Below, piece by piece: positions 1,991-21,386 of a stretch of DNA of 32,000 bases; the stretch's first letter is position 1, and each line of letters begins with the position of its first letter. The notes below the pieces were generated by a model that saw only the letters and a program-made list of their open reading frames with translations, was not told the DNA's origin and did not search any database. The stretch covers positions 330,001 through 362,000 of the forward strand of contig OY969902.1 of NCBI GenBank assembly GCA_963704435.1. The letters are read 5' to 3'. The translations under genes and the position numbers were made by a program. This DNA comes from an uncultured archaeon. GTDB taxonomy: Archaea; Micrarchaeota; Micrarchaeia; Micrarchaeales; CABMGC01.

Positions 1991-1991
1991 A

Positions 1992-3224: not shown

Positions 3225-3288
3225 GCTTCTAATCTGGCCCGAGGGCGGTATTTCAATCTTTCGGGGTAATGGTAAGCTTGACTGCGGT

Positions 3289-3359
3289 AGCCAGGGAAGG
3301 GAGTTGAACCCCTCTTTTCCGCTCTGCAGGCGGACGCATAGCCGATCTGCCACCCTGGC
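3289..3359 (-). tRNA. tRNA-Cys (anticodon GCA)
   Basis: Cloverleaf folded by hand from the reverse strand: acceptor GCCAGGG/CCCTGGC, D-stem GCAG/ATGC (one G-A mismatch), anticodon stem TCCGC/GCGGA with loop CTGCAGA, T-stem AGGGG/CCCTT with loop TTCAACT, discriminator U73 (typical of tRNA-Cys). No encoded CCA. Confidence 0.85.
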
Positions 3360-3433
3360 GGGCGCATATCATCATCTTTAATAAACGAACATTTAAAAAC
3401 AGTTGAAGGCAATTAAGACCGAAGGTAATTTTG

Positions 3434-4585
3434 ATGTCGACACTTTACGAGCCGCTGCCAAAGGAGTTTGTTTCCAAGACTGCATCTTTCGACTACAAGA
3501 CGCCCATGACGCAGGCGCTTGACGGGATAAGCCAGTTCGGCGCGGTCATAGTCGTCAAGGACAAGGAGTATTTCGGCATCGCGGACGGGAGGGCAGTCTC
3601 GAGGAAGGGCTCCGACAGATCCCTGAAGTTCGCGAAGACCCTGCCTGTCGGCAGGTTCGCGAGAAAGCTGCCCGTGCTCGGCCCAGACGTTTCTGTGGGC
3701 AGGACGATAAGCTATTTCCACGAGTTCTCGGCAAAGGCTTTCCCATACCGGGACGCAGGAGGCATAACGGGCATAGTGAAGAGGGATGTGGTCCTCAGGT
3801 CGATAATCTCGCTCCACCTTCTGTCCAAGTCGGTCGTCGGGGACGCGATGTCGACCCCGGTGCTCGCGATAGACGCTGGCGCAAGCCTGTCGCAGGCCAT
3901 GAGCGTGATGTCGCAGAACAAGATAACGCGGCTCATCGTGGTTGACGGGGGGAAGCCCTTCGGACTGATAACGCACAAGGACATATACTCCAATTTCGCC
4001 AGGGCGGATTCGCGGCATCCCGAGCTCACGCCTGAGCCGCGCTCTCTCTCCGACGTGACCGTGAGGCAGGTCGCAAGGACCGAGACGCACTCGATAGACT
4101 ATCAGAGCCCGCTGGAGGACGCGATAAGGAGCCTGCTCGCCAAGGGCATATCCTCGCTCATAGTCACCAGGAATGGAAGGCCCGTCGGGATGCTCTCCAT
4201 TAGGGACGTCTTCGAGCTTGCGGCGTCGAGCATAGAGAAGGTGCGCAGCAGGGTTATCGTCACTGGCATAGACGACAGCACGGTGGGCTACGAGCAGGAC
4301 ATAGAGAACGAGGCCAACAGGATGATAGACAGGATGGACAAGTTCGGCAGGCTGGGAATAAGCTACGCCGCGATAAACGTCAACAGGGTCAAGGAGAGGG
4401 GCTACGAGCTAAAGGCCAGACTGGGCTTCGAGAGGAAGGGCGTGATGTACGCGACGGCCACCGGATACGGCATCGAGGCCACGCTGACCGCGCTGCTGGA
4501 CAGCCTGTTCAAGCAGGTCAAGGAGAAGAAGGAGATGGGTGTGAGCCTCAGGAAGGGCTCCGAGAGATACTATGGCGAGAAATAG
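3434..4585 (+). CDS. CBS-domain protein (four CBS motifs) with C-terminal HPF/RaiA-like module
   Basis: The track start at 3431 is TTG; ATG is at 3434. CBS motifs include VVGDAMSTPVLAIDAGASLSQAMSVMSQNKITRLIVVDGGKPFGLITHKDI and VRQVARTETHSIDYQSPLEDAIRSLLAKGISSLIVTRNGRPVGMLSIRDVFE, plus two degenerate N-terminal ones. The C-terminal 94 aa (4253..4534) follows the HPF/YfiA pattern (see findings). Confidence 0.85.
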   Translation: MSTLYEPLPKEFVSKTASFDYKTPMTQALDGISQFGAVIVVKDKEYFGIADGRAVSRKGSDRSLKFAKTLPVGRFARKLPVLGPDVSVGRTISYFHEFSAKAFPYRDAGGITGIVKRDVVLRSIISLHLLSKSVVGDAMSTPVLAIDAGASLSQAMSVMSQNKITRLIVVDGGKPFGLITHKDIYSNFARADSRHPELTPEPRSLSDVTVRQVARTETHSIDYQSPLEDAIRSLLAKGISSLIVTRNGRPVGMLSIRDVFELAASSIEKVRSRVIVTGIDDSTVGYEQDIENEANRMIDRMDKFGRLGISYAAINVNRVKERGYELKARLGFERKGVMYATATGYGIEATLTALLDSLFKQVKEKKEMGVSLRKGSERYYGEK

Positions 4586-5051
4586 GAACGGGAGCAGGAG
4601 GCTGCAGTCGAGCTTCGAGCTCCTCGTGACGCTGTCGCTCGGCCTTGCGATACTCATGCCGATAGTGGTGATAGCGTTCGTGCAGCTCTCCGCGTCGTCA
4701 TCGTCGCTCTCTGCGATAGAGTCCCAGCAGGCCGCGAGCAAGCTCGCGAGCGTCGCAGTCCTCGTGGGGAGCCAGGGCGCCCCTGCGAAGCAGCTGGTGC
4801 AGATATCAGTCCCTCCAAACGTGAGGTACATCTACATAGGCAACGCAAACAACACCGTGGGCCACGAGGTGATATTCGTCGTCGCATCCTCATCGGGCCC
4901 TAGCTACGTCACCGCGTACACGCCCGTGAACGTCAGCGGCAGCCTCGGGAGCCTGGCCTCGGCAGGGACGTACCTTGTGAACGTGACCGCGCAGTCCTCA
5001 TGCCCCACGAACACGCTGCTGGCGTGCGTCTATATGTCCTCGAAACCATGA
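4572..5051 (+). CDS. Small pilin-like protein with class III signal peptide
   Basis: 159 aa. The N-terminus MARNRNGSRRLQSSFELLVTLSLGLAILMPIVVIAF has a basic stretch, then Q-S-S-F-E (Glu at +5 if cleaved before Q), then about 20 hydrophobic residues. The remainder is Ser/Thr/Val-rich with N-x-S/T sequons. Overlaps the CBS gene by 14 nt. Confidence 0.7.
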   Translation: MARNRNGSRRLQSSFELLVTLSLGLAILMPIVVIAFVQLSASSSSLSAIESQQAASKLASVAVLVGSQGAPAKQLVQISVPPNVRYIYIGNANNTVGHEVIFVVASSSGPSYVTAYTPVNVSGSLGSLASAGTYLVNVTAQSSCPTNTLLACVYMSSKP

Positions 5052-5165
5052 TCTACTGTCAGATATGTGAAATGGGTGACAGTCAGATAGTGAGCAATTG
5101 CCCATCTTGGCTAGTTGTTTAAAATATCCCTGCTAAAATGAAATAAATTTAGATTTAGTAGGGTT

Positions 5166-5177
5166 AAATTTAAATAT
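5166..5177 (+). promoter_or_regulatory. TATA-like box upstream of the AAA+ gene
   Basis: The sequence aaatttaaatat is centred about 26 nt upstream of the ATG at 5198, spacing typical of an archaeal promoter driving a leaderless or short-leader mRNA. Confidence 0.35.
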
Positions 5178-5197
5178 CTTAAGGTGCAATTCACAGC

Positions 5198-6457: not shown

Positions 6458-6561
6458 CGTGTTTCAGGCATCATAAGCAGGTTAGCGGTTGTGTGTAACC
6501 GCCCGCATGATGGGCCGCAAAAACGTTTAAGAGCGTGTCCATCGATATTGAGCTGAGTTTG

Positions 6562-9500
6562 ATGGCCCGCAGTAAGCTCCAGTTATCCATAGAGTTCATG
6601 ATGGTCTTCTCCTTCGTGCTCGTGGTCTTCACCTTCCTGTTCGCGCTCGTGGCCACCCAGAGAGCGCAGACGCTGAACAGCCAGGAGTTCGAGCAGGGCC
6701 AGCTTGTCGCGCAGAGCGTGGCGGCGCAGCTCGACAGGGCGCTGCAGGCGGGGAACGGGTACTACGCCGCGATACCAATCACGAGCGCGCTGGGCACTCT
6801 GAACTACAAGCTGGCGATAACCAAGGGCGGGGCGGTGGTCGTCAACACCACGATAAACAAGCAGGTGACGCAGGCGATATCCTACAGCTCCGTGAAGCAG
6901 GTGGTCTCGAACCCGTCGTTCATACCCGCAGGTCTTCCTACGAACGCGGTGAGCTACTACCTGATGCCGATAGCCAACGGCACGCTGACGATACAGAACT
7001 CATTCGGGACAATCTGCGTCGACTATGCATGCCCAACCACGAGCAACACGGCAACCAACGTCAGCATGTCGGAGCAGGTAGTGCACGCAGCAAACTTCAA
7101 CGGGCAGAGCAGCTATATACAAGTAAACAATCCCTTCAGTACCAGTTGGTATTTTTATTGGCATTACGGGAGTGCTAATGTGGTTGCAGCAATAGTCGGC
7201 TCTACGGTGTATTCGTCCACTACACTTCATCCGAATGTGTGGTCGCACGTCTGCTTTACTTATTTATCTGGTTCGGGAACGCTAAATATCTATGCCAATG
7301 GTGCTCCAGCTGGCTCAGGTTCGGCGACAGGTGGTAGTACCCTATCAGTATGTGCATGGATTTATCCAACAAGCAGCGCGATAGGAGACATCACAAGCAG
7401 TGAAGATTCTACCAACTATGCGCTAATCGGTGCAAGAAACCCAACCACCAACCTCTTTCAGGGCTCCATCTCCAACGTCCAGATATACAACATCGCCCTT
7501 TCATCGAGCCAAGTTTCCGCACTCTACGCAGAGGGCATAACAGGCAGCCCACTCGCAGGGGCGGGGAATATCGGATGGTGGCCGCTCAACGGCAACGCGA
7601 ATGACTACTCAGGCAATGGCAACAATGGAAACGTCATAGAATCAATGATGTACACCACAGTGGCGCAGCTCTCCGCAAAAGTAACGAACCCGCTTGGCCA
7701 GCCGCTCGCAAATGCGCTTGTAGGATTTACTACCACTCTCGGCAACCTCACAAAAGGCCAGGTCGCCATTAACTACACCAACGGAAACGGCATCGCGACA
7801 GCGTTCCTGGACCAGCAGGGGAACAGCGGCCAGGCGCTGGTGAAGGCCACCGCATACAACGGCAATACGGCGCTGCAGGGCAACCTGGTAAGCTGGTATC
7901 CGCTCAACCTGGACCAAGGAAGCACGGTCCCCGACCTTAGCGGCAATGGCAACAACGGGGCGATGCTCTACACTAGCTGGAGCGACCCGAACTACGTGGC
8001 TGGATTTGACGGGCAGAGCAGCTATATTTCAACTTTCTCAAATAATTTTCCTACGGGCTCAAGTGCCTATTCGGTATTCGCTTGGGTTTATTTGACTTCC
8101 AATGTCCCAACAGCCATTCAGGCAATAGACTATTATGGGACCCAGGGCACGAGCTACGCGACGCGCATCTTCTCAACGGTTGGGCAGACACTTTGTTTCT
8201 TTGGAGGATCCGATACTTTCCAATCAACGCTAACAGTCCCTCTAAATACCTGGACGCTTGTTGGAGTGACCTATCAAGCATCCTCAACGCAAGTCACAAT
8301 ATACATGAATGGACAGTCGCAGATAGGAACACTGAGCGGAAGTACCGCGTTAAATACCCCTTCAGGGACGATAAACTATGTTGGCGGGAATCCCACCTAC
8401 TTGTGGTGGTTTCCGGGCAGAATTGCAAATGTACAGATGTACAGCACCGCCCTTTCGGCAAACCAGGTCCAGCAGCTCTACCCGAGCGGTATTTCCAGTC
8501 CTCCAATCGCGGGCTCGGGGCTCGTCGGTTGGTGGCCGCTCAACGGCAACGCGAACGACTACACCAGCAATAACAACAACGGTGCCATTTACGGGAACCT
8601 TAACTTCGCAAGCACGTCCTCGATTCCAAGCCCAAATGCGAACGCCACGAGCATGTTTGCCGGGGGATTCAACGGAATCAGCAGTCAAGTGACGGTAGCC
8701 TCTACCGCAATTCCGAACGCTGCCACTCTTATAGCATGGATATATCCCTATAACGTAATAGGAGAATCGGGATGCTCCAAGGAAGCCAGCGGTTGCATAT
8801 CCATAATGGGATACTCTCCGGCCTCCGCAGAATATGATCTTTGGCTTTATCTCACCAATGGGCAGCTCGGAGGCACGGCATACAGCACGACGTATCCCAT
8901 GCTTCACGGAGGCACCACCATAACTGCAAATAATTGGTATCAGGTCGCCATGACTGCATCAAATACGCTTGGCACTCTCTCTCTGTATATCAACGGCGTG
9001 AACGTGGGAACGAATGCTATAGTGAGTCAGGGATTTTGGACTGGCGGGAATCCGGAAATCGGAAATCTGAGAGCAGGGCAGACTACTAACTTCAATGGCC
9101 TCATCTCTAACGTCCAGCTCTACAACTCCACCCTGAACGCAAATCAAATCCGCACAAGCTACAGTGAAGGGATAGGCGGCCTTCCGCTCACTGCGAACCT
9201 CATCGGATGGTGGCCGCTCAACGGAAACGCGAACGACTACTCCATGGTGGGGAACAATGGGACCGCATCGAACGTCGTTTATCCCGCAATTCAGACGATG
9301 GGAGGAGGAATTCCCACCTATTCGCTGGGCTCGTACGGCGCGAACTTCAACGGCCAGAGCAGCTACGTAACCTTCGGAAACAGCATCAACCCTGGATTTG
9401 GCAGCTTCACTGTCGAGGGCTGGGCTTATGCCACAAACTACACCTACCCGAGGACGCGCATCCCCATAGGGAGCTACACGAGTTCCGGCAGCGGCTTGCC

Positions 9501-9912
9501 AGGATGGGGCATAGACGACGCCTATACTGCAGGCGCCATCACGATATATTTTTCGGACGGGACAAATAGGCTAAGCACCAGCATCCCTTGCGATCCGGGA
9601 TACAAGCCCACCGATACCCTGAACAGGTGGGCGCAGGTGGTGGTCGTTTTCAACAGGACATCGGGCAAGGCGATCGCATACGTAAATGGGGTGCAGCAAT
9701 CGACGCAGGTCTCCATCGCCGCGGTAACGGGAAACGTGTTTAACTCATATGCTGGAGAGCTCGGGCTCGTCGCCGGCTGGTACCTTAGCGGTTCGATGGC
9801 GGACGTCCAGCTATACAACGCCGCGCTGAACGCTAACCAGATCAAGCAGCTCTACCAGAGCCAGATGCCGCCCAGCGCCAGTGCAGCCGTTCCTTTGAGT
9901 TGGGTCCCATGA
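6562..9912 (+). CDS. Giant pilin-signal protein with four LamG (concanavalin A-like lectin) modules and one Ig-like insert
   Basis: Track start 6535 is GTG; the ATG at 6562 gives MARSKLQLSIEFMMVFSFVLVVFTFLFALVA (class III signal-like, Q+1...E+5). There are four modules, each starting near FNGQSSY/FDGQSSY and ending ISNVQIYNIALSSSQVSALYAEGITGSPL, IANVQMYSTALSANQVQQLYPSGISSPPI, ISNVQLYNSTLNANQIRTSYSEGIGGLPL and MADVQLYNAALNANQIKQLYQSQ. An Ig/Big-like segment (AKVTNPLGQPLANALVGFTTTLGN...NGIATAFLDQQGNSGQALVKATA) lies at about 7633..7890. Confidence 0.9.
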   Translation: MARSKLQLSIEFMMVFSFVLVVFTFLFALVATQRAQTLNSQEFEQGQLVAQSVAAQLDRALQAGNGYYAAIPITSALGTLNYKLAITKGGAVVVNTTINKQVTQAISYSSVKQVVSNPSFIPAGLPTNAVSYYLMPIANGTLTIQNSFGTICVDYACPTTSNTATNVSMSEQVVHAANFNGQSSYIQVNNPFSTSWYFYWHYGSANVVAAIVGSTVYSSTTLHPNVWSHVCFTYLSGSGTLNIYANGAPAGSGSATGGSTLSVCAWIYPTSSAIGDITSSEDSTNYALIGARNPTTNLFQGSISNVQIYNIALSSSQVSALYAEGITGSPLAGAGNIGWWPLNGNANDYSGNGNNGNVIESMMYTTVAQLSAKVTNPLGQPLANALVGFTTTLGNLTKGQVAINYTNGNGIATAFLDQQGNSGQALVKATAYNGNTALQGNLVSWYPLNLDQGSTVPDLSGNGNNGAMLYTSWSDPNYVAGFDGQSSYISTFSNNFPTGSSAYSVFAWVYLTSNVPTAIQAIDYYGTQGTSYATRIFSTVGQTLCFFGGSDTFQSTLTVPLNTWTLVGVTYQASSTQVTIYMNGQSQIGTLSGSTALNTPSGTINYVGGNPTYLWWFPGRIANVQMYSTALSANQVQQLYPSGISSPPIAGSGLVGWWPLNGNANDYTSNNNNGAIYGNLNFASTSSIPSPNANATSMFAGGFNGISSQVTVASTAIPNAATLIAWIYPYNVIGESGCSKEASGCISIMGYSPASAEYDLWLYLTNGQLGGTAYSTTYPMLHGGTTITANNWYQVAMTASNTLGTLSLYINGVNVGTNAIVSQGFWTGGNPEIGNLRAGQTTNFNGLISNVQLYNSTLNANQIRTSYSEGIGGLPLTANLIGWWPLNGNANDYSMVGNNGTASNVVYPAIQTMGGGIPTYSLGSYGANFNGQSSYVTFGNSINPGFGSFTVEGWAYATNYTYPRTRIPIGSYTSSGSGLPGWGIDDAYTAGAITIYFSDGTNRLSTSIPCDPGYKPTDTLNRWAQVVVVFNRTSGKAIAYVNGVQQSTQVSIAAVTGNVFNSYAGELGLVAGWYLSGSMADVQLYNAALNANQIKQLYQSQMPPSASAAVPLSWVP
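7571..7628 (+). repeat. LamG-junction DNA repeat, copy 1 of 5
   Basis: tcggatggtggccgctcaacggcaacgcgaatgactactcaggcaatggcaacaatgg encodes GWWPLNGNANDYSGNGNNG. Confidence 0.8.
8525..8582 (+). repeat. LamG-junction DNA repeat, copy 2 of 5
   Basis: tcggttggtggccgctcaacggcaacgcgaacgactacaccagcaataacaacaacgg; about 37 of the first 40 nt match copy 1 by eye. Confidence 0.8.
9203..9260 (+). repeat. LamG-junction DNA repeat, copy 3 of 5
   Basis: tcggatggtggccgctcaacggaaacgcgaacgactactccatggtggggaacaatgg; about 38 of the first 40 nt match copy 1 by eye. Confidence 0.8.
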
Positions 9913-10448
9913 AGGCGCAGTTCTGGTCTTTCGATGCAATATTCGCGATGGTGATATTCATAGCCGCGCTGGTCCTGCTGACGTTCGTCTGGAACAGCAT
10001 GAGCAACCAGTTCTCTCTCGCGTCCGGATTCGGCGTCGTGAACATGCAGGCCCAGCTGCAGAGCCTGCAGAACAGGATAATCACGCAGGGCGCACCCGCA
10101 AACTGGAACTCTCAGGTCAATGTCTCGAAAATCTCAACGTGGTCAAATGTGAGCATAGGCCTGGGAACAGGCGGAGGATCGTCGCTCTCGGTAAACAAGA
10201 TAATGACCTTTGTGGCGATGTCCGACCACAACAGCACGGCGTACCAGGCCACGAAGCCGCTTCTCGGAGTTGGCTATGATTATTATATCACAATATACGA
10301 AAGCAATGTGACGATTGGATTGGGGATTCCCCCATATGCGCACAGCCCAACAGCAATTCAGGTCGCAAGGCAGTCCGTAGTGGTAAACGGAGCACCTGCG
10401 CAGATGCAGATAATTGTCTGGACGAACAAGACCTTCGGTGTCAGTTGA
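9909..10448 (+). CDS. Small pilin-like protein with class III signal peptide
   Basis: The ATG at 9909 overlaps the upstream TGA (ATGA at 9909..9912). N-terminus is MKAQFWSFDAIFAMVIFIAALVLLTFVW (K-A then a hydrophobic stretch). 179 aa with several N-x-S/T sequons. Confidence 0.75.
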   Translation: MKAQFWSFDAIFAMVIFIAALVLLTFVWNSMSNQFSLASGFGVVNMQAQLQSLQNRIITQGAPANWNSQVNVSKISTWSNVSIGLGTGGGSSLSVNKIMTFVAMSDHNSTAYQATKPLLGVGYDYYITIYESNVTIGLGIPPYAHSPTAIQVARQSVVVNGAPAQMQIIVWTNKTFGVS

Positions 10449-12604: not shown

Positions 12605-15195
12605 AGTCAATCCTCAGGAGGTCGCACAAGGCACAGCTAATGACAATACTGGTGCTGGTGCTCTTCATGCTCATGCTGGCTGAGCTGTTCGCGTTCGCTC
12701 TGCTGAACGTGAACTCGAACAGCATGGCGCAGCAGCTCACAGTATCGCTCAGCACGAACAATTACGGCAGCCTTCTTAAGCAGAGCGCGGGAGCATTCGC
12801 GCAGGCGAGCATGTATGGCGCCCTTGCGGCGATAACGAATTACGAATACAGCCCTGCGCTCAGGAAGGGCAACTTCATAGCCAATTTCAGCCAGTACATG
12901 TCGTATCTCATGACGAACGGGATTCTCCCAAACGATGTCTCGGGATATCCGCAGAACGCGATGGGAAATCTCACTCTCGCAAGCTACAACGCTTCCATAT
13001 CAAAGCTCGTGGGTTTCGCCTCGCAGAACGTAATCGTGAACGAGACCGCGCCCAGGATCTTCCAAACGGATCCGTTCCATCTGCGCGTATCATACACGGA
13101 GAACATAGCGATAAACGCGTCAGGAAGCATCTACAGGTATAGCATACCCGTCAACGCGTCGATAAACCTCAACAATACGCCCGACCTCTTCTACGCGCAG
13201 CAGGGCATTCTCAGAACGGTAAAGTTCGCGAGCGCAAGCAATCTGACTTCTGTCGTCTCGGGCTCTTATGCCACTTCGGGCAACACTATCGACTATGCCT
13301 ATGGCACGGTATACGCAATCTCAAGCAGTTCCACGAGCAGCGCCACCTGCTCGGGCGGCTACGTAGCTGGCATGCCCTCCCAGTTCAACTCCGCGCTCGC
13401 GAACTCCCTGATAATATCCACTTACAACGCGTTGAGCCTAAGCTCATGCATAACCAGCTATGGGGGCCTCGTATCCTATATCGCGCCTTCGAGTCTACCG
13501 GCCATGCCTTATCTCACATACTCCTCATCATCAGGAGTCGTGGCGAGCCTGCCCACAGGCATGCACGTCCTGCTCTACGGCCCGGGGATGGACGTGCTGA
13601 ACATAGAGAACCTGAGGAACGCGGTCATGAACGCCAACTACTTCCCTTCGCAGTTCACGCCCTCGTTCATCGACAGGGCGAATGCGAACTTCGCCGACCA
13701 GTCGCCCAACGGCATATTCTCCTTCAACAACTACAACACCCAGATTGCGAGCTTCAACGGCGCCAGCAGTTTCGTGGATGTACCATACAATTCCGTAATC
13801 GAGGGCATGACGAGCAACATCGCCGTGAGTGCATGGGTTAGTACGGCTTCGTCCTCAGCCCAGGTTATCTTCTCGGCGTGGGACGGCACCAACGGCTACC
13901 AGCTATACTCGAATAGTGGCAACGTTATCCTATGGTCCAATGGCGGCGGATCCCTCGTCTCTCCCAAGCGCGTCAACGACGGCAACTGGCACTACATAGT
14001 CGGAGTCTACACCAGCTCCATGAAGTACCTCTATGTGGATGGCGTGCTGGTCGCCAGCGGATCAGGCACACTCTCCGCCTCGACCAAGGATGCGCAGATA
14101 GGCACACAGTGCTCCGGTTCGGGCGGCACTACCTGCAGCGACTTCTTCTCCAACTCCATCGCTAATGTACAGCTATACGGCCTGCCGTTAACGGCGGCGC
14201 AGGTCCAGCAGATCTACCAGGAGGGCATCTCCGGCCTCCCGATAGCCAACGCGGGATTGGTCGGGTGGTGGCCACTCAACGGGAACGCCAACGATTTCTC
14301 TGGCAACAGCAACAACGGTGTGCCAAACTACGTTACATATAGATTGCCCTCAAACTATGCCCGGGACAGCATTCTCGTCGCCAATACGCCAATGGCTCCC
14401 CAGCCGCTCCCAGGAATCCTTTCCTGCACGTCGAACAGCCAGTGCGCGAGCAACAGCCTGCCGATGCTTTACCTCAGCTACATGCCGCTCGCGGTCCAGA
14501 GCGGGATCATGCAGTCAGGGGGATTCAACGGCTGGACCAACTACATAAGCGTGTCTTCCAGCGCTCTGGACACGGGCAGCGCGGTCACGATGGTGGTCTG
14601 GAGCGACCAACTCGGATCAGGGAACCAGGGGACGCGCGGCATAATGTTCTCGCAATATTCGACATATCTGGACGTTTGCTACAGCGGCGCGCCGCTGTTT
14701 GCTGTCGAGAACTTAGGAGGCACCCAGATACTCGCGCAGGGGGGGACCTGCCCTACCGCAGGGGTGTGGAGGCAGTATGTTGGCACCTATGACGGCTCAA
14801 CGATGCGGCTGTACATAAATGGCGTTCAGGTAGGAAGCAATTCCCAGAGCGGCACGCTGGGTCCCGCGGCAGTGAATATCGGGGAATACTACGCCGGCAG
14901 CTACAATTTCAATGGCCTGCTATCGAACGTGCAGCTCTACAACGCAGCCCTGTCCGCGACCCAGGTGAGCAGCCTCTATCAAGAAGGCATCGCGGGCATA
15001 CCGTTAACGGCGAATCTCGTCGGATGGTGGCCGCTCAACGGCAATGCCAACGACTACAGCGGCAACGGGAACAGCGGGGTTCCGGTCAACGGAGTCATCT
15101 ATCCTTACTTCTCGGGAACGTACAACGCCCCGGGCTTGTCGTCCATCGCCACGACGGCGAACGAGTGGCAGGCGCTCGGCCTTGCGAACACGTGA
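12595..15195 (+). CDS. Pilin-signal protein with two LamG modules
   Basis: ATG at 12595; an alternative ATG at 12601 forms an ATGA overlap with the upstream stop. The N-terminus ...RRSHKAQLMTILVLVLFMLMLAELFAFALL has K-A then a hydrophobic stretch. LamG modules end IANVQLYGLPLTAAQVQQIYQEGISGLPI and LSNVQLYNAALSATQVSSLYQEGIAGIPL. The protein stops shortly after a final GWWPLNGNANDYSGNGNSG motif. Confidence 0.9.
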   Translation: MEMKSILRRSHKAQLMTILVLVLFMLMLAELFAFALLNVNSNSMAQQLTVSLSTNNYGSLLKQSAGAFAQASMYGALAAITNYEYSPALRKGNFIANFSQYMSYLMTNGILPNDVSGYPQNAMGNLTLASYNASISKLVGFASQNVIVNETAPRIFQTDPFHLRVSYTENIAINASGSIYRYSIPVNASINLNNTPDLFYAQQGILRTVKFASASNLTSVVSGSYATSGNTIDYAYGTVYAISSSSTSSATCSGGYVAGMPSQFNSALANSLIISTYNALSLSSCITSYGGLVSYIAPSSLPAMPYLTYSSSSGVVASLPTGMHVLLYGPGMDVLNIENLRNAVMNANYFPSQFTPSFIDRANANFADQSPNGIFSFNNYNTQIASFNGASSFVDVPYNSVIEGMTSNIAVSAWVSTASSSAQVIFSAWDGTNGYQLYSNSGNVILWSNGGGSLVSPKRVNDGNWHYIVGVYTSSMKYLYVDGVLVASGSGTLSASTKDAQIGTQCSGSGGTTCSDFFSNSIANVQLYGLPLTAAQVQQIYQEGISGLPIANAGLVGWWPLNGNANDFSGNSNNGVPNYVTYRLPSNYARDSILVANTPMAPQPLPGILSCTSNSQCASNSLPMLYLSYMPLAVQSGIMQSGGFNGWTNYISVSSSALDTGSAVTMVVWSDQLGSGNQGTRGIMFSQYSTYLDVCYSGAPLFAVENLGGTQILAQGGTCPTAGVWRQYVGTYDGSTMRLYINGVQVGSNSQSGTLGPAAVNIGEYYAGSYNFNGLLSNVQLYNAALSATQVSSLYQEGIAGIPLTANLVGWWPLNGNANDYSGNGNSGVPVNGVIYPYFSGTYNAPGLSSIATTANEWQALGLANT
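14261..14318 (+). repeat. LamG-junction DNA repeat, copy 4 of 5 (most diverged)
   Basis: tcgggtggtggccactcaacgggaacgccaacgatttctctggcaacagcaacaacgg, located in the third large gene. Confidence 0.7.
15019..15076 (+). repeat. LamG-junction DNA repeat, copy 5 of 5
   Basis: tcggatggtggccgctcaacggcaatgccaacgactacagcggcaacgggaacagcgg, close to the 3' end of the third large gene with no LamG body after it. Confidence 0.8.
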
Positions 15196-15231
15196 GCTTT
15201 ACCGAGCTGCACCCCCTTCCGCCTCTCGGGA

Positions 15232-16233
15232 TCATGCTCCGCTGACGCTGGTGAATATCCCGCCTATCACCACGCTGACCACGAAGAACACCACTATCCC
15301 TATCACCAGGAACGCGGGCAGGTACCTGAGACCCTTCAGCACCGACCCCGTGGATATGGCGCTGACTATGAACGACCCGAAACCGGATATCAGCAGCACG
15401 GCTGCGATGGAGAAATCATAGTACTCGCTAGTGGTTATCTGCGGAGGGCTGGGCTTGAGGAAAGAGATGCCCTGCGTCGGAAGGCCTCCGGGGTTCTGCC
15501 TCAGTATCCCCGCCCATACCGAGTTGGTCATCGTGATCATCTGGGAGGTAAGCGCGTAGAGCACGGGCGTTCCTATTATCGTCGCGAACGCTATGAAGAT
15601 GGTGTACATGAAAAGCTGTCCTGATATCTCCTTGCCCACCATGGCCTGATTCCTCATGTCCTTCGAGAGCTGGTTCAGGAGGTCGGTCATGCCTCCGCCG
15701 TACTGTATGCCCTCGATCATGAGCCTGACCGTGTGCTGCAGCTGCACCGACCGGTAGGTCCTGGACAGGTTTATCAGCGCGCTCTGCAGGGTGGCGCCGG
15801 CGTACAGGTCCTTGTTCATCTCCTTGACGTCGTCGCTGAAATAGCCGAAGTCCGGCCTCGCGGCCAGCAGCATGGACTTGTCCAGGGCGACACCGCTCCT
15901 TACGTTGGCTGCGGTCAGCTGCAGGTAGTCCGGCAGCACCGTCTCCACGAAGTTCTTCCTCTGCTCTATCCGGAACTCAAGGATGGCGTATATGATGATC
16001 TCGTACGCCGCTGCCGCGATGAATGCGGCGAGCGCGGCAAGGCCGGCGTTGAGCTTCATGATCAGGACGAGAGCGAAAGGCATGGCTGCGAATATCCCCA
16101 GCCCGCCGATTATCGCGATCTGGAGGAACCGGTTGAGGTCCATCTTTATCCCGGAGAGCTTCAGCTCCCTGGACAGCACGGTACCCAGGCTCCTCGATAC
16201 GAGCTTCTCGAAATCTATCTTCATCCGATTCAC
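15232..16233 (-). CDS. Type II secretion system F-family (FlaJ/TadC-like) pilus platform membrane protein
   Basis: 333 aa polytopic protein. A cytoplasmic helical T2SS-F-like block (LPDYLQLTAANVRSGVALDKSMLLAARPDFGYFSDDVKEMNKDLYAGATLQSALINLS) is flanked by TM segments. The GTG at 16233 overlaps the upstream TGA; an alternative ATG is at 16224. Confidence 0.85.
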   Translation of the reverse strand: MNRMKIDFEKLVSRSLGTVLSRELKLSGIKMDLNRFLQIAIIGGLGIFAAMPFALVLIMKLNAGLAALAAFIAAAAYEIIIYAILEFRIEQRKNFVETVLPDYLQLTAANVRSGVALDKSMLLAARPDFGYFSDDVKEMNKDLYAGATLQSALINLSRTYRSVQLQHTVRLMIEGIQYGGGMTDLLNQLSKDMRNQAMVGKEISGQLFMYTIFIAFATIIGTPVLYALTSQMITMTNSVWAGILRQNPGGLPTQGISFLKPSPPQITTSEYYDFSIAAVLLISGFGSFIVSAISTGSVLKGLRYLPAFLVIGIVVFFVVSVVIGGIFTSVSGA

Positions 16234-17675
16234 ATCGCGAAAGTGGGCCTCGACGACCTCACTATGTTAAGGAATATTATCTGCAGGAAGGTTATGCCCA
16301 CGAGCACCATCAGGAGCGTCGATACGTTTATGGTGAACAGGTTGACGAAAGTCGTGAGTATCGCGGCTATCGCTATCCCCATGCTCGGGAATATGACTCC
16401 GAAGAGCATGTAGAACATGGCGAGCGCGTTGAGCCTCTGCCCGTAGCGCCTCATGTCTATGACCCTCTCCTGCGACGCCTCCTCCACCACGCCCTGGAGC
16501 GCGTCCACCACGTCGGCCCCTGCCTTGAGGCTGACGCTCGCCTGGAGCATCACCCTCTTGAACGTCTTGGACTTGCTCTTGCTGCTGACGTCGTCTATCG
16601 CCTGCTCTATCGGGGAACCGACCTGCACCAGCTCAACAACCTTCGCGAACTCCTTGCTCGCGGCGCCGTAGCCTGTGCTCACCGCGGCCATGGCGTTGAA
16701 CAGCGGCATCCCGGACCTCATGCTTATGACCATGTCCCTCGCTGCGAAGAGGATGTCGCGCTCTATCTCATTGCCGATTATGGTGCTCCGGTCGATAGGG
16801 TACCTTATGAACTTGTTGAAGAGCGCGGGATAGCTTGCTCCTCCAAGGAGCACTGCGAGCAGGATCGGCACGGCTGGCTCAAAGGGAAAGAACTGCAATA
16901 GCAACATGGCGACGGCCACTGTTATCACCGCGACGATGATCATGGTGTTTATGAACATCTTCTTGACGAAGGCGTACGGGGATTCCTTTATTCCCTGCGC
17001 CCTGAGTGCCGCCTCAAGGTCCTTGTGCTTCGCGGCGACGCTGGCGAAGTATATCTGGATGCTTCCGGGCCTCTTGTATCCGGGCTTCGCCGCGGGCCCC
17101 TGCGCTCCGGGAGCGGCCGGGCGGGCCTGCGCGGTAGCTGCCTGGGCCGCGGGCTTCCTTGCCGGGCCGAACGGCTCGAACTTCCTGACTGGCGCCGGCT
17201 CCGGCCGCGCGCTGAAGACCGGCTTCATCTCGGGCAAGGTGGTCTTCTTCGGACCGAAAAGCGAAAGCGGCTTCTTGGGAGGGGGCGCGGCGGCTGGCTT
17301 TGCCTCCGGGAGCGGCTTCATCTCCGGAAGCCGCGTCTTCTTTGGCCCGAAGAGGGAGAACGGCTTGCTCGGCGAAGGCGGAACGGCCGGCCTTGCGACC
17401 GGAATCGGCTTGGCCGCTGGCGGCTTGGGCTCCTTTGGCTTGAAAAGCGTGAACTTCTTTGGAGGAGACGCTGGCGCGGGTGCCTTCCAGATTGGCGCGG
17501 GCTTCGGCGGCGTTGCAGCCATCGGCGCACCTGCCTGCTTGCTCCCGAATATTGGCTTGGCCCTTACCTTGAAGAACCCGATCTTCTTCGGTTTGGTGAA
17601 TCCGACGACGTTACCCGTCCCCGCTTCGGTGCCCTTAGCGCTTTCCTTCCTCTTGAAAAGGACCATCGGAATCAA
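16230..17675 (-). CDS. T2SS-F-family (FlaJ/TadB-like) platform protein with long Pro/Ala/Lys-rich N-terminal extension
   Basis: The C-terminal half has TM segments plus a T2SS-F block (IERDILFAARDMVISMRSGMPLFNAMAAVSTGYGAASKEFAKVVELVQVGSPIEQAIDDV). The first roughly 205 aa are low complexity with repeated F-x-L-F-G-P-K-K motifs. Track start 17675 is TTG; ATG at 17666 (MVLFKRK...) is an alternative. Confidence 0.85.
   Translation of the reverse strand: MIPMVLFKRKESAKGTEAGTGNVVGFTKPKKIGFFKVRAKPIFGSKQAGAPMAATPPKPAPIWKAPAPASPPKKFTLFKPKEPKPPAAKPIPVARPAVPPSPSKPFSLFGPKKTRLPEMKPLPEAKPAAAPPPKKPLSLFGPKKTTLPEMKPVFSARPEPAPVRKFEPFGPARKPAAQAATAQARPAAPGAQGPAAKPGYKRPGSIQIYFASVAAKHKDLEAALRAQGIKESPYAFVKKMFINTMIIVAVITVAVAMLLLQFFPFEPAVPILLAVLLGGASYPALFNKFIRYPIDRSTIIGNEIERDILFAARDMVISMRSGMPLFNAMAAVSTGYGAASKEFAKVVELVQVGSPIEQAIDDVSSKSKSKTFKRVMLQASVSLKAGADVVDALQGVVEEASQERVIDMRRYGQRLNALAMFYMLFGVIFPSMGIAIAAILTTFVNLFTINVSTLLMVLVGITFLQIIFLNIVRSSRPTFAM
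17220..17366 (-). repeat. In-frame tandem duplication inside the platform-protein N-terminal extension
   Basis: KPFSLFGPKKTRLPEMKP and KPLSLFGPKKTTLPEMKP lie 31 aa apart. The DNA repeat is visible on the plus strand as ggcttcatctc.gg.a....gtcttctt.gg.ccgaa.ag.ga.a.cggctt occurring twice. Confidence 0.8.
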
Positions 17676-17694
17676 GCATTACTTAGTCGCAAAC

Positions 17695-17703
17695 ATTTTT
17701 ATA
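17695..17703 (-). promoter_or_regulatory. TATA-like box upstream of the platform-protein gene
   Basis: Reverse strand reads tataaaaat, about 24 nt upstream of the TTG at 17675 and about 33 nt upstream of the ATG at 17666, within the 43-nt gap after the preceding ORF. Confidence 0.3.
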
Positions 17704-17718
17704 GGCGCGTCGGCAATG

Positions 17719-18351
17719 TCAGCCGCGCTGCAGCGTCAGGCCCATGGCCGTCGCAATCTCGATGGCCTTTTGGTTCCTGAGCGCCACGAGTTCCTTCTGC
17801 TCATCACTCAGGCCCTTGGTGTCCTCCCTCATCGAGGCCGCGTAGAGCCACCGGATCTCATTGGCTATTATCCCGAGCTGCTTCTTGTCGAACGTCCCCT
17901 CGGCCATGCCCTGCTCTATGCTCTCCAGGTCGGACAGCTGGTCCTGCACGGACAGCTTCGGCATGACGAGCTTCCTTGCGGAGATCCCTGCCAGGTCGCC
18001 CTTGACCGATTCCCCGAGCTCCCTCCCTGCGCCGCCAACGACGCCGCTGAGCGCCCTCGCGGCGCCCTCCGCTTCATTCCCGAGGGACGGCTTCCTGACG
18101 GCCGGCGCCTGAGGTTCCGCGCGCTGCGCCGCTGCCTTCTGCGCCTGCGGCTGCTGGGCGGCAGCCTCCGCGGTCTTCGCCTCCACGCTCTCGAGCAGCG
18201 CGCTCACCTCCGAATACGCGACGGCCCTTATCTCCATCCCCTTCGAGAGCATCGCGTCTATGTCGATGGCGGCGGTCCCGGTGCCGCCCGCTGCCGCCTC
18301 CCCTATGAGCGCCGCCGCCTTCTCGTAATCGCTCGCATCGTCCGCGGTCAC
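17719..18351 (-). CDS. Hypothetical Ala/Glu/Gln-rich protein between the ATPase and platform genes
   Basis: 210 aa. The GTG start at 18351 overlaps the ATPase TGA (GTGA at 18351..18348). The N-terminal two thirds are low complexity. The C-terminal roughly 70 aa look helical (LSDLESIEQGMAEGTFDKKQLGIIANEIRWLYAASMRED...). No family recognised. Confidence 0.55.
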   Translation of the reverse strand: MTADDASDYEKAAALIGEAAAGGTGTAAIDIDAMLSKGMEIRAVAYSEVSALLESVEAKTAEAAAQQPQAQKAAAQRAEPQAPAVRKPSLGNEAEGAARALSGVVGGAGRELGESVKGDLAGISARKLVMPKLSVQDQLSDLESIEQGMAEGTFDKKQLGIIANEIRWLYAASMREDTKGLSDEQKELVALRNQKAIEIATAMGLTLQRG

Positions 18352-19874
18352 GCCAATCCCTTCTCGACCACGTCGCGCGAGTAGGCCACGTCCGCATCGA
18401 CGATCTTCATCACCTTGTCCCTGTCCTTGTAGTAGTTGGCGACGACGAACCCGGAGGAGTCGACGTCAAAGACGTTGTTCTTGACCATCCAGTTCATGAC
18501 CTTCCGCTTATCCTCCAGGCTCTGGTTAAGCTCCGCCCTGTTGAACCCGCCGTATAGCGTTATCATCTCGCTGAGCCTCGCGAGCTCGGAGATCTGGGAG
18601 AACGTGTCGTTGCGCATGTCCCACCTGTAGTTGATGCTGACGTCGCCGTTCCTCGACATCTCGCCGAACTCCAGCACCCTCCTTATGCCGAGCCTCCTGT
18701 GCCTGAACAGCGTGATTATCCCCCCGAAGGCGTTCATCATCAGCTTCGGGACCTCGATCGGCGGATTCGTCATCCTGATCACCGTGTCCTGCGCGTTGTC
18801 CGCGTGCACCGTCCCGTACACCGCGTGGCCCGTGTGTATCGCCTCGAACAGGGTCTCCGAGTCGTTCTTGGTCCTCACCTCTCCCACCAGCATGACGTCC
18901 GGCCTCTGCCTGAGCGCGTTTATCATGAGGTTGTAGAGCGTGACCTCGCCCTTGCCCTCGGGGTTTGGCTGCCTCGTCAGCATCGGGATCCAGTGCAGGA
19001 ACGCCGGAAGCGTGAGCTCGCGCGTCTCCTCGACCGAGATGACCCTGTGGTTCGCGGGTATGAATATGCTCATCGCATTCAGGAAGCTCGTCTTCCCGCT
19101 CGCCGTTCCCCCTGAGATGAGCAGGCTGATCTCGTTCTCAACGCAGAGCCAGACCAGCGCGGCGAGCTCCGATGATATGGTCTTGTTGGCCACCATCGCG
19201 GGCATCGTCCACGGGTTCTTCCCGAACTTCCTTATCGTTATCGTGTTGCCCTTCTGCGATATCGGATACAGGGTGGCGTTGACCCTCGATCCGTCGGGCA
19301 GCTCCGCGTCCATGAGCGGGGAGAGGTTGGACACCTGCCTGCCTATCCTCCTGCCTATGGCCTCCGCGTTGTCGTATATTATCGTCTCGTCGGCTATCGT
19401 TATGTTCGTCTTGCACCACCCGAACGTCTTGTGGTACACCCACACCGGCTCCTTCGACGTGTTGACCGCGATCTCCTCGAGGTTCTCGTCCGCGAGCGGG
19501 GCCTCCAGGTCGCCCAGGCCGAGCATGAAGTTTATTATGTAGGCTATGAGCACCCTCTTGGTGTCCTCCGACGACCCGGGCAGGTACCTCTCTATCACCA
19601 TCTCCGAGGTCTCCTCGTACCTCTTCGAGAGCGCGTCCACGTACTCCTTGTCCTCGATCTTCGACGGGTCTATGGGCACCATCGACAGGAGCTCCTGCCT
19701 GAGCGACACCAGCAGCACCTTCGTCGCGTCGCCGAGGCCCCTGGTGGTGACCTCATATATGGGCGTGAAGTCGCCCTTGTCGAGTATCCTGACCTTCACG
19801 TTGAGGCCGTGCGCGTCAAGCTCGTACGCTGCGTATTCCTTCTCCGCAACCCCTGGCTTCTGCGCGTCTGGCAT
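18348..19874 (-). CDS. FlaI/PilB/GspE-family type IV pilus (secretion) ATPase
   Basis: Walker A LISGGTASGKTSFLNAM, Walker B and His box RPDVMLVGEVRTKNDSETLFEAIHTGHAVYGTVHA, and an N-terminal FlaI-like domain (NLEEIAVNTSKEPVWVYHKTFGWCKTNI). Confidence 0.95.
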   Translation of the reverse strand: MPDAQKPGVAEKEYAAYELDAHGLNVKVRILDKGDFTPIYEVTTRGLGDATKVLLVSLRQELLSMVPIDPSKIEDKEYVDALSKRYEETSEMVIERYLPGSSEDTKRVLIAYIINFMLGLGDLEAPLADENLEEIAVNTSKEPVWVYHKTFGWCKTNITIADETIIYDNAEAIGRRIGRQVSNLSPLMDAELPDGSRVNATLYPISQKGNTITIRKFGKNPWTMPAMVANKTISSELAALVWLCVENEISLLISGGTASGKTSFLNAMSIFIPANHRVISVEETRELTLPAFLHWIPMLTRQPNPEGKGEVTLYNLMINALRQRPDVMLVGEVRTKNDSETLFEAIHTGHAVYGTVHADNAQDTVIRMTNPPIEVPKLMMNAFGGIITLFRHRRLGIRRVLEFGEMSRNGDVSINYRWDMRNDTFSQISELARLSEMITLYGGFNRAELNQSLEDKRKVMNWMVKNNVFDVDSSGFVVANYYKDRDKVMKIVDADVAYSRDVVEKGLA

Positions 19875-19878
19875 CCGA

Positions 19879-21081
19879 TCACTTAGCTATATCGTCCATG
19901 TCCTTTTTTATCTTTTCCAGGCCCGCGGTGGCTTCGCCCTCGCGCATCCCCGCTTCGCCCAGCTTCGACTCGACGTCCTCCAGCTCCTTCTCCCTCTTCC
20001 CCGCGTCGAGCCTGCCCAGCGCGTCTATCGCCTTCAGCTGGTCGGAGAGCTCGCTCAGCTGCTTGGAGAGCTCGTCGCGCTCCTTCTCGGCGCCGGCTAT
20101 GTCGGTCTTGACCTTGTCCAGCTTGTCCCCGAGCTCCGCGAACCCGCCGAAGCGGCCCTTCATGTCCGCGAGCACCGTCCTCAGCTCGGTTATCCTCTTG
20201 TTCGCCGCGGCGTAGGCGTTGCCGACCTCTCCGCTGGCTTTCGCTATGTCGTCGAGCATCTTCTCCCGCTCCCTTGACGCACGCCTCCTTATGGCCTCCG
20301 AGTCGCGCTCGTACGCCTTCGACTGGGTCGTCAGGTCCTCCACCTCCTTCTGGCGCTGGAACACGAGACGCTTCATCGACGCGTCCTCCTGCCTGAGCCC
20401 GTCGAGCGTCTCCGTGAAGCTCCTCCTGCTCGACGCGACGGCCTTGTCGAACTCCTTGTCGAGCTTTCCGATCGTCTCCTCCGCGTCGCTGATCCTCTCG
20501 CGCATGTCGGCGATCATGGCCCTCGCCTCCTCGTCGCCTCCCGTGCGCTTCGGCGCGGCGGCGCGCTGGTCGAGCGCAAGCATGCTCTTGTTCAGCGCGC
20601 CGACGATCCCGTCTATGTAGTCCTTCCTGTCCTTCAGCCTGCGGTACGCCGCCTCCAGCTGCGAATCCAGACGGTTTATGCTGTCGAGCGCGGTCTTTAT
20701 CTCTCCGGCCCTGCCCCGGTATGCCTCCTCGGCGCCGGCCTCGAAGCGCTTGAACTCGTCTATCTTCGCGGTTATCTGGTTTATTATGTTGACCTGCGCA
20801 GCGAGCTCGGTCTCCGCTATGTTCTTCTTGAGCTCGGCCGTCTTCTTCGCTTCCCCGACGCCTGCGCCCGCCTCGGCGCCGGAGACCAGGGAGACGTACA
20901 TCTTCCCGACTTTGTAGGTTATCTTGACGATCTTCGCCTTCTCCAGCGCGTCCGCCCAGGCCTCCACTATCCCGGGACCAACCCCGAGCGTGATTGCGAG
21001 CGCGGACGATTCCGTCTCGCCGTGCTCGTTAAGGTACTTGACCAGGTCGTCGATGCTGGTCGTTATGCGCTGGTCGGCCAT
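19879..21081 (-). CDS. Winged-helix-like N-domain plus roughly 320 aa coiled-coil protein
   Basis: The track ORF extends to 21258, but the Met at 21081 (MADQRITTSIDDLVKYLNEHGETESSALAITLGVGPGIVEAWADALEKAKIVKITYKVGKMYV) matches the start of the paralog upstream and has its own TATA-like box. The rest is heptad-like and rich in E/K/R/A/L (AELKKNIAETELAAQVNIINQITAKIDEFKRFE...). Its stop lies 4 nt before the ATPase start. Confidence 0.8.
   Translation of the reverse strand: MADQRITTSIDDLVKYLNEHGETESSALAITLGVGPGIVEAWADALEKAKIVKITYKVGKMYVSLVSGAEAGAGVGEAKKTAELKKNIAETELAAQVNIINQITAKIDEFKRFEAGAEEAYRGRAGEIKTALDSINRLDSQLEAAYRRLKDRKDYIDGIVGALNKSMLALDQRAAAPKRTGGDEEARAMIADMRERISDAEETIGKLDKEFDKAVASSRRSFTETLDGLRQEDASMKRLVFQRQKEVEDLTTQSKAYERDSEAIRRRASREREKMLDDIAKASGEVGNAYAAANKRITELRTVLADMKGRFGGFAELGDKLDKVKTDIAGAEKERDELSKQLSELSDQLKAIDALGRLDAGKREKELEDVESKLGEAGMREGEATAGLEKIKKDMDDIAK
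20996..21068. repeat. 73-nt perfect direct repeat, copy 1 (partner 21295..21367)
   Basis: gcgagcgcggacgattccgtctcgccgtgctcgttaaggtacttgaccaggtcgtcgatgctggtcgttatgc is identical in both copies, while the flanking homologous sequence is diverged. Confidence 0.9.
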
Positions 21082-21100
21082 GGGTACGCATAGGGTGTTG

Positions 21101-21110
21101 TTATTTAAAG
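21101..21110 (-). promoter_or_regulatory. TATA-like box upstream of the coiled-coil gene
   Basis: Reverse strand reads ctttaaataa, about 20-29 nt upstream of the ATG at 21081. Confidence 0.35.
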
Positions 21111-21170
21111 CCTTAACGCTTCTGTTCTGGGAAAAACAACGGTGGAGCTTCGCGCCCAGAACCTGCTGCC

Positions 21171-21386
21171 TCAGCCCTTGGCGACCGGCGCGAGGTACAT
21201 CCTTCCCCTCTTGTAGATTACCTTCGTCATCTTCGCCTTCTCCAGCGCTCCCGCCCACGCCTCTATTACCGCCTCGCTCACTCCGAGAGTGCCCGCGAGC
21301 GCGGACGATTCCGTCTCGCCGTGCTCGTTAAGGTACTTGACCAGGTCGTCGATGCTGGTCGTTATGCTCTGTTCGTCCGAGGACAT
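21171..21386 (-). CDS. Stand-alone winged-helix-like protein, paralog of the coiled-coil protein N-domain
   Basis: 71 aa: MSSDEQSITTSIDDLVKYLNEHGETESSALAGTLGVSEAVIEAWAGALEKAKMTKVIYKRGRMYLAPVAKG. It aligns residue for residue with the first roughly 70 aa of the downstream gene. Confidence 0.7.
   Translation of the reverse strand: MSSDEQSITTSIDDLVKYLNEHGETESSALAGTLGVSEAVIEAWAGALEKAKMTKVIYKRGRMYLAPVAKG
21295..21367. repeat. 73-nt perfect direct repeat, copy 2 (partner 20996..21068)
   Basis: Same 73-nt string as copy 1, offset by 299 nt. Confidence 0.9.

Follow-up and report, generated by a model that had tools for sequence, protein, structure and literature searches.

A conserved type IV pilus-like locus of Micrarchaeota with large, LamG-bearing pilin-like proteins

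Archaeal type IV pilus (T4P) loci of clade 1 comprise an ATPase, two TadC proteins and at least five minor components with class III signals, and in the model drawn for this clade large FlaFind-positive DUF2341/COG5306 surface proteins are placed as tip adhesins (Makarova et al., 2016, PMC4858521). Micrarchaeon Mia14 (Ca. Mancarchaeum acidiphilum) has been described as having two type IV pilus systems. One of them, MIA14_0170-0177, runs from a CpaF-family ATPase through an unlisted gene, two TadC genes and a pair of unlisted genes to a 'secreted T4P component' and one last gene, and was assigned to the Methanococci/Methanothermobacteria/Thermococci group, that is to Makarova clade 1, Epd type (Golyshina et al., 2017, PMC5498576). 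In the same genome LamG-like genes are expanded, with arCOG07813 present 18 times, some of them being linked to pilus loci with a probable role in host interaction, and one A24 peptidase, MIA14_0570, is encoded elsewhere in the genome (PMC5498576). In bacteria, PilC of Streptococcus sanguinis is a concanavalin A (ConA)-like lectin modular pilin of 52.8 kDa with one lectin module, found with a small pilin in a complex predicted to lie at the tip (PMC9934059), and PF13385 is among the commonest modules in more than 1,200 bacterial modular pilins, including those of the candidate phyla radiation (CPR), in a survey that did not cover archaea (PMC8179133). Here we describe a locus in a 32,000-nucleotide stretch of DNA (the window; GenBank assembly GCA_963704435.1, contig OY969902.1, positions 330,001 to 362,000) from an uncultured archaeon of the Micrarchaeota. 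In our judgement the locus probably encodes a Micrarchaeota-wide type IV filament (pilus-like) system with a lectin-bearing minor-pilin-like complex, the likely use of which is host attachment.

Open reading frame (ORF) analysis of the window resolved positions 4572-21386 into two converging gene sets, A to F on the plus strand and G to K' on the minus strand (Table 1), with CDC48, aIF2-gamma and ribosomal protein S6e genes and two tRNAs giving the window its archaeal character. A preliminary description of this DNA, made from the letters alone, had proposed a type IV pilus-like locus, and this is borne out by the T2SSE ATPase J, the two T2SSF genes G and H and the prepilin-like N-termini of A, C, D, E and F. 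The converging operon is likewise as first outlined, with the ATPase J, the platform genes G and H and three uncharacterised genes, I, K and the 71-aa ORF K'. The span given at the outset holds for the two converging sets and not for gene B, which lies inside the range and outside the conserved locus as judged by tblastn. C, D, E and F are joined by consecutive start/stop overlaps, all present as reported, ATGA at 9909-9912 (C/D), TGATG at 10446-10450 (D/E) and ATGA at 12601-12604 (E/F). On the minus strand there are 4-nt overlaps between G and H and between I and J, with the end of K lying 4 nt short of J. No terminator was found between the two convergent operons when one was looked for, and the other sizeable ORFs of the window that were scanned with Pfam fall into unrelated families or into no family.

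The N-terminal sequences of the five secreted proteins, which agree with those first quoted, are RRLQSSFELLVTLSL for A, SKLQLSIEFMMVFSF for C, MKAQFWSFDAIF for D, MKGVMFTLDALF for E and HKAQLMTILVLV for F. In all five a basic leader of 3-13 residues ends in a conserved site, K or R followed by G, A or L, and precedes 18-23 hydrophobic residues. The leader of A is MARNRNGSRRL, followed by QSSFELL (Q+1, S+3, E+5), and that of C is MARSKL, followed by QLSIEF; D has MKA before QFWSFD, E has MKG before VMFTLD, and the leader of F ends in SHKA before QLMTIL, with no acidic residue at +5/+6. These motifs are conserved in 43-78 orthologues per family, with K/R at -2 in about 100%, G, A or L at -1, and an invariant Q at +1 in the A, C and D families. 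A and C share S+3 and E+5, with D and E sharing S or T at +4 and D+6. The N-terminus of C is conserved across 53 orthologues, and all 58 orthologues of F have K/R at -2 and G/A at -1, with 48/58 matching a FlaFind-like pattern. In this genome both A and C have Leu at -1, a residue that is frequent at this position across the A, C and D families. The combination of Q+1 and E+5 after a leader of 5-13 aa is the signature of the EppA-processed Epd pilins of Methanococcus maripaludis and is missing from Sulfolobus and Haloferax pilins (PMC3875500). A and C have this signature, D has Q+1 with D+6, and E and F deviate from it. The bacterial N-methylation motif IPR012902 gave no Pfam or NCBIfam match on any of the N-termini, as expected in archaea. 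That A, C, D, E and F carry putative class III signals is well supported at motif level, though short of proof.

Behind these N-termini C, E and F are modular, as shown by Pfam run on whole proteins and on slices (cut-offs of 27.6 bits for Laminin_G_3 and 34.9 bits for Big_1). C has an N-terminal module of about 175 aa, one LamG module, an Ig-like insert and three more LamG modules, the four Laminin_G_3 modules scoring 55-71 bits each and the insert being Big_1/invasin-like at 27.5 bits, under the cut-off. E consists of a D-like N-terminal module of about 105 aa, a PQQ_2 beta-propeller (70 bits) and one LamG module, and F of an N-terminal domain of about 380 aa without a Pfam family followed by two LamG modules. 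In total the locus encodes seven LamG modules along with a single weak Ig-like insert and a single PQQ-type beta-propeller, in agreement with what had been read from the letters. No Pfam family was matched by the N-terminal parts of C, E and F or by the whole of A and D, and no glycoside hydrolase family appeared in the Pfam scans of C, E and F, in which the lectin-type modules were Laminin_G_3 only. Profile comparison shows homology between D and the N-terminal module of E (hhalign probability 90%, E 1.5e-6), which is consistent with E being a D-like module with grafted domains, and found A and C alike only over the first 30 residues.

With a conserved N-terminal module joined to PF13385 or PQQ_2 domains, C, E and F fall within the Raynaud/Pelicic definition of modular pilins. 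They resemble the bacterial examples (the S. sanguinis lectin pilin PilC and vWA pilin PilB) in having a prepilin-like N-terminus and a short pilin module with a grafted lectin module, in being placed with a small non-modular pilin in a complex with a predicted tip location, and in that a subunit without the acidic residue is the predicted cap. They differ in that the bacterial set is defined by IPR012902, and in that the proteins here are 718-1116 aa long with three of four coupled genes modular.

Charged residues are scarce in the secreted proteins A, C, D, E and F (K+R 2-5%, D+E 2-4%), which have a high content of Asn, Ser and Thr. The preliminary description had taken dense N-x-S/T sequons as a sign of N-glycosylation, a claim that does not survive comparison with shuffles of each protein: C has 10 sequons against 21 expected and F has 8 against 15.5 expected, with the counts of A, D and E close to the shuffle expectation. 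Sequon density was accordingly rejected as evidence of glycosylation, the counts not exceeding what composition gives. The near-uncharged composition with sequon depletion in C and F may reflect acid exposure.

For the two small proteins, AlphaFold2 (AF2) models were built from family alignments. The model of A (predicted local distance difference test, pLDDT, 88.6) has a helix at residues 7-68 followed by a compact all-beta domain, and that of D (pLDDT 86.4) a helix at residues 2-57 followed by a compact alpha/beta domain, so that both are predicted to have a continuous helix of 55-60 residues with a globular domain, the general shape of a type IV pilin. A is the most conserved secreted component (57-74% identity), with Q12, S14, E16, C144 and C152 invariant in the orthologue alignment and the sequon N120-x-S122 conserved, N120 being nearly invariant; some of its homologues carry the Joint Genome Institute (JGI) name 'UPF0333 family'. 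Among homologues of D the N-terminus is near-invariant, with Q4, S7 and D9 invariant and M1, F5 and W6 each conserved in at least 90%.

Searches with D returned 97 homologues, 143 genome loci and 972 profile matches, the genome scan using one genome per species and synteny being taken from the best 80 of the 143 loci. Where named, the homologues belong to Candidatus Micrarchaeota or Micrarchaeaceae, with one labelled Woesearchaeota, and the best 80 loci are almost all from metagenome-assembled genomes of Micrarchaeota, together with the cultured Ca. Micrarchaeum sp. A_DKE; a more distant homologue of D is present in the cultured ARM-1. Synteny was counted by tblastn of the window proteins against related loci, the denominators being loci with enough flank. 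The order Z-A-C-D-E-F, in which Z is the CBS-domain gene, followed by converging G-H-I-J-K, recurs repeatedly among these loci, and C-D-E-F with G-H-I-J-K is found in dozens of Micrarchaeota genomes including A_DKE. C lies upstream of D in 54/62 loci, A is at the locus in 41/59, and the CBS-domain gene accompanies A in all 43 of the loci that carry A. Downstream of D both platform genes, G and H, are found in 45/50 loci and J in 44/50, and of the secreted genes it is D that shows the tightest linkage to the machinery. A co-occurrence check of this kind had been proposed for the link between the LamG pilin genes and the ATPase and platform genes, and these counts uphold it.

The orthologues are mostly 760-1310 aa for C, 570-930 aa for E and 610-1215 aa for F, and their giant sizes, kept phylum-wide, are ancestral as judged from these comparisons. 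By tblastn, J, G, H and A have the highest identity and C, E and F the lowest, a pattern to be expected if the stems are conserved and the outer modules change. In the A_DKE locus (L079 7176-15698) the propeller is missing from E, which has two LamG modules, and there are three LamG modules in C and three in F. Supplementary Data S5 of Krause et al. (2022) lists the A_DKE orthologues as Micr_00441 to Micr_00449, with J (Micr_00442) annotated as arCOG01819 CpaF, H (Micr_00444) as arCOG01812 TadC, G (Micr_00445) as arCOG01811 TadC, C as arCOG07813 (LamG) and D without annotation (PMC8975820). In the A_DKE co-culture the genes of the locus are all transcribed, at 0.7-5.0 transcripts per million against 1.4 for SMC, levels similar to those of SMC or signal peptidase (PMC8975820). 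About 20 genes from this locus the A_DKE genome has another pilus locus, with a FlaI-type ATPase (Micr_00422) and a 68-aa pilin (Micr_00425), and it also encodes a 5095-aa ConA-like protein beside an S-layer gene (Micr_00291/00292), Micr_00291 being GH16-related according to InterPro and outside the locus.

The machinery genes were scored against the Pfam cut-offs for T2SSE (24.9 bits) and T2SSF (25.2 bits) and the NCBIfam cut-offs for FlaI (equivalog, 550 bits), BasE (1000 bits) and TafC (410 bits). J scores 109 bits with T2SSE and 253.6 bits with FlaI, the latter under the equivalog cut-off, and in the PDB it matches 2OAP (E 8.7e-63) and FlaI 4II7 (E 5e-55). A homologue search with J gave at least 120 sequences, all from Micrarchaeota, with no outgroup among the matches listed. 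Both platform proteins exceed the T2SSF cut-off, G scoring 55.5 and H 50.9 bits. Residues ~60-175 of H (~17153-17498) form a Pro/Ala/Lys-rich extension with repeated SLFGPKKTxLPEMKP-like units, which is lacking in the A_DKE orthologue (345 aa). I has no Pfam or NCBIfam match and was found by tblastn in 41 related loci, with K in 31. K, a putative cytoplasmic partner, has weak coiled-coil-type matches only, such as SMC and FlaC_arch, and its N-terminal domain is probably winged-helix-like. A 199-nt direct repeat, 81% identical, lies at 20881-21079 and 21180-21378, and by it the N-terminal domain of K is duplicated as the separate 71-aa ORF K', which has a weak match to the Csa3 helix-turn-helix region (E 1e-4, under the cut-off). 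Because of this repeat analysis the start of K is taken as the ATG at 21081 and not at 21258, the other gene positions standing as first placed.

Set against the systems described so far, the locus has one of its closest counterparts in Mia14, which belongs to the same phylum and in which the spacing of MIA14_0170-0177 equals J-I-H-G-F-E-D-C here, orthology resting on layout and on the A_DKE arCOG01819 annotation. In the Mia14 table the LamG genes are not listed as pilus components and no class III signals are ascribed to them, and the coupled four-gene operon and its phylum-wide conservation are not described (PMC5498576). With clade 1 and the Epd type the locus shares an ATPase and two TadC genes, class III-type minor components, here C, D, E and F with A nearby, several minor pilins with Q+1/E+5, and large ConA-like surface proteins. 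It differs from them in its Laminin_G_3 arrays, at most four per protein, and its propeller, in a shaft pilin candidate that is 159 aa long and linked to the locus as against a stand-alone one of about 70 aa, and in a -1 residue that is often Leu and not Gly; EppA and FleN/MinD genes are likewise lacking from the 32-kb window. DUF2341 was not among the Pfam matches of the window proteins at E<=0.01. Laminin_G_3 and DUF2341 belong to the same ConA-like fold class. The assignment to clade 1 is indirect, by way of the placing of the Mia14 counterpart by Golyshina et al. and the A_DKE arCOG01819 annotation. A Pfam match to PilB3_C at 23 bits hints at clade 2.

The preliminary description did not recognise the gene set as a named archaeal pilus type, a statement that has to be withdrawn, as a Mia14 locus of the same layout had been listed as Epd-type, clade 1 (PMC5498576). 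It had also named assignment to an already described class with the same large subunits as an outcome that would refute its reading, and this has in part come about, given the Mia14 assignment (PMC5498576) and the clade 1 model with its DUF2341 tip adhesins (PMC4858521). The earlier interpretation is overall partly supported, the adhesion role being one that we infer, and the locus does not represent a new machine type: an archaeal pilus class with ConA-like adhesive subunits had been outlined before, and this is the form that it takes in Micrarchaeota. The Tat-fimbriae of Haloarcula were also considered, as the LamG-type region gives partial NCBIfam matches to TafC of 19-65 bits; Tat-fimbriae differ in being Tat-dependent and assembled by strand donation, with no twin-arginine signal present here (PMC11821415). 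TafC was rejected, the matches covering the LamG part only and falling well below the cut-off of 410 bits.

The reading we favour, a type IV filament with a lectin-bearing minor-pilin-like complex, could operate as follows. J, with the heteromeric platform G/H and the putative cytoplasmic partners I, K and K', would extract the prepilin-like proteins from the membrane, their leaders presumably having been removed by an unlinked A24 peptidase, and these would polymerise through their long N-terminal helices. The products of the coupled genes C, D, E and F would form a minor-pilin-like complex that primes assembly and then stays at what would be the distal end of the filament. Within it D would be the plain core subunit and E a paralogue of D with a grafted beta-propeller and one LamG module, and F is a likely cap because it has no acidic residue at +5/+6 near its N-terminus, by analogy with GspK and S. 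sanguinis PilA. The shaft would be built by A or by an unlinked small pilin. The filament, or a short stalk crossing the S-layer, would then present seven concanavalin-type lectin modules and a propeller beyond the S-layer, the most plausible use being the binding of glycans or glycoproteins on a Thermoplasmatales host or in the biofilm matrix.

Several observations weigh against this reading. Class III signal profiles from Pfam and NCBIfam gave no match on the five N-termini or on A homologues at E values up to 10, and Foldseek searches of the PDB with the models of A and D gave no significant match to a solved pilin, the best E values of 3e-2 and 6e-3 being chance-like. Leu at -1 is not, to our knowledge, a documented prepilin-peptidase site. 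The Pfam scans found no A24 prepilin peptidase in the 32-kb window, as had been noted at the outset. A is not in the A_DKE locus, and in several lineages D stands alone beside G-H-I-J-K, with E and F absent from the locus and, in several of these lineages, C too (Table 1). We know of no Micrarchaeota pilus that has been purified and of no ligand for these LamG modules.

In an alternative reading the N-termini are uncleaved signal anchors, and C, E and F are ordinary membrane-anchored surface lectins merely neighbouring a pilus operon. In favour of such anchored adhesins, neither profiles nor structures match known pilins, in this genome both A and C have Leu at -1, and LamG expansion is general in Micrarchaeota, as the 18 copies of arCOG07813 in Mia14 and the 5095-aa ConA-like protein of A_DKE attest. 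A simple anchor, however, has no need of an invariant K/R at -2, a small residue or Leu at -1, an invariant Q+1 and an acidic residue at +5/+6 maintained throughout a phylum. Co-function is indicated by the overlapping starts and stops shared with D and by linkage to the ATPase and platform genes throughout the phylum, and E has a paralogue of D as its N-terminal module. We regard plain anchoring as improbable.

The retention of D alone beside the machinery in some genomes, which makes D seem an indispensable partner of it, would also suit a type II secretion-like exporter, in which D, perhaps with A, acts as the piston of a pseudopilus to release the LamG proteins as cargo, for instance glycan-binding or glycan-degrading exoproteins. 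The ConA-like superfamily includes glucanases, and Micr_00291 of A_DKE, outside the locus, is the GH16-related protein mentioned above. The signals on type II cargo, on the other hand, are of the Sec or Tat kind and not prepilin-like, the conserved site of the pilin-like proteins recurs in C, E and F, and the modules that Pfam gives in them are of the Laminin_G_3 type, with no glycoside hydrolase family, so that we hold export of this kind to be very improbable.

The absence of A from the locus in many lineages would suit a device other than a long pilus. J, G and H could insert the LamG proteins, by way of their putative class III signals, into a short, bindosome-like or pseudopilus structure within the 20-25 nm pseudoperiplasm and the S-layer, giving a fixed lectin coat or capture array, and 2-4 LamG modules as beads on a string could alone span the 20-25 nm gap reported for A_DKE. 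C, E and F far exceed any shaft subunit in size, and the bindosome of Sulfolobus is an archaeal precedent for large proteins with class III signals handled by a T4P-like system (PMC3875500). What is alike is the reliance of large, functional surface proteins, bearing class III signals that are putative here, on a T4P-like ATPase together with a membrane protein; the difference is that bindosome components are sugar-binding proteins of ATP-binding cassette (ABC) transporters, and the gene sets differ. Membership in the bindosome (Bas) system was itself rejected, as J reaches 136.5 bits for BasE, with its cut-off of 1000, as compared with 253.6 for FlaI, and there are no substrate-binding-protein domains. 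These two results also speak against the short device, as do the conserved small pilin-like A adjacent in 41/59 loci and the thin pilus-like filaments seen on ARM-1 cells by cryo-electron tomography (bioRxiv 2024.05.20.594898); pili and LamG are unmentioned in the main text of the A_DKE and ARM-1 cultivation papers. We consider such a short device unlikely, and the filament carrying lectin-bearing minor-pilin-like subunits remains the reading followed here.

Table 1. Coordinates of the features of the locus in the window; the last row refers to positions in related loci.
Feature	Position	Strand	Basis
CBS-domain gene, precedes A (Z in locus order)	3431..4585	+	Pfam CBS 89 bits
A, 159-aa pilin-like protein, candidate major pilin	4572..5051	+	conserved N-terminus, AF2
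B, AAA_14/DUF4143 ATPase	5198-6457	+	Pfam
C, 1116-aa modular pilin-like protein	6562..9912	+	Pfam on slices, conserved N-terminus
D, 179-aa small pilin-like core component	9909..10448	+	homologue searches, AF2
E, 718-aa modular pilin-like protein	10448..12604	+	Pfam, hhalign
F, 866-aa modular pilin-like protein, candidate capping subunit	12595..15195	+	Pfam, orthologues
G, platform protein, TadC/PilC type	15232..16233	-	Pfam T2SSF 55.5 bits
H, second platform protein, Pro/Lys-rich N-terminal extension	16230..17675	-	Pfam T2SSF 50.9 bits
I, 210-aa acidic protein between ATPase and platform genes	17719..18351	-	conservation
J, secretion ATPase, FlaI/CpaF/GspE family	18348..19874	-	Pfam T2SSE 109 bits
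K, 400-aa protein, small N-terminal domain and long coiled coil	19879..21081	-	weak coiled-coil-type matches
K', 71-aa ORF that repeats the N-terminal domain of K on its own	21171..21386	-	199-nt direct repeat
Loci with D alone beside the machinery	L060 10001-12112; also L030, L043, L044, L061, L063, L067, L078		

Gene B was considered as a component of the system and rejected, being missing at this position in other loci. It lies between A and C in this genome only, with A directly abutting C elsewhere in tblastn of related loci, and weak B-like matches were found in just four of those loci at 23-26% identity. The 5-6 kb bin, the region of gene B, has a guanine-plus-cytosine (GC) content of 0.44 against about 0.55 around it. 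B looks like a recent local insertion splitting A from C; repeats flanking it were looked for and none were found. Elsewhere in the window, a tyrosine integrase gene on the minus strand (1992-3353) abuts tRNA-Cys (3289-3359) and is adjoined by a low-GC ORF at 1013-1990, and 1013-3359 is probably an integrated element. Directly adjoining the pilus operon, at 21439-23396, are three TrkA_N/RCK-domain genes in a row, two of them with membrane segments, and at 24899-27069 a low-GC island with a nucleotidyltransferase/HEPN pair and an IS200-like Y1 transposase lies beside tRNA-Gln.

The means by which DPANN archaea recognise their hosts and keep hold of them have yet to be explained, and no attachment structure of Micrarchaeota has been assigned to genes. 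The locus provides named candidates that are conserved phylum-wide and transcribed, in the cultured A_DKE Micr_00446 to Micr_00449, among which Micr_00448 is the small core subunit. Three features appear not to have been stated before, that the LamG giants themselves bear a conserved prepilin-type N-terminus, that together with the small D they form a coupled four-gene set kept phylum-wide, and that the outer modules of C, E and F are exchanged between lineages. The idea of the modular pilin, developed in bacteria and with such proteins frequent in the analogous ultra-small CPR, is extended by this locus to archaea and taken to an extreme, each operon encoding seven or eight lectin modules. 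More tentatively, C, D, E and F might form a phylum-wide host-recognition tip. This would be the archaeal equivalent of the priming complex that four minor pilins make up in bacteria, with three of its subunits turned into giant lectin carriers, and the swapping of LamG modules and propellers on conserved pilin stems would set host range, among Thermoplasmatales and others. If this were true, such a tip could underlie the 'pili-like' contacts between archaeal Richmond Mine acidophilic nanoorganisms (ARMAN) and their hosts.

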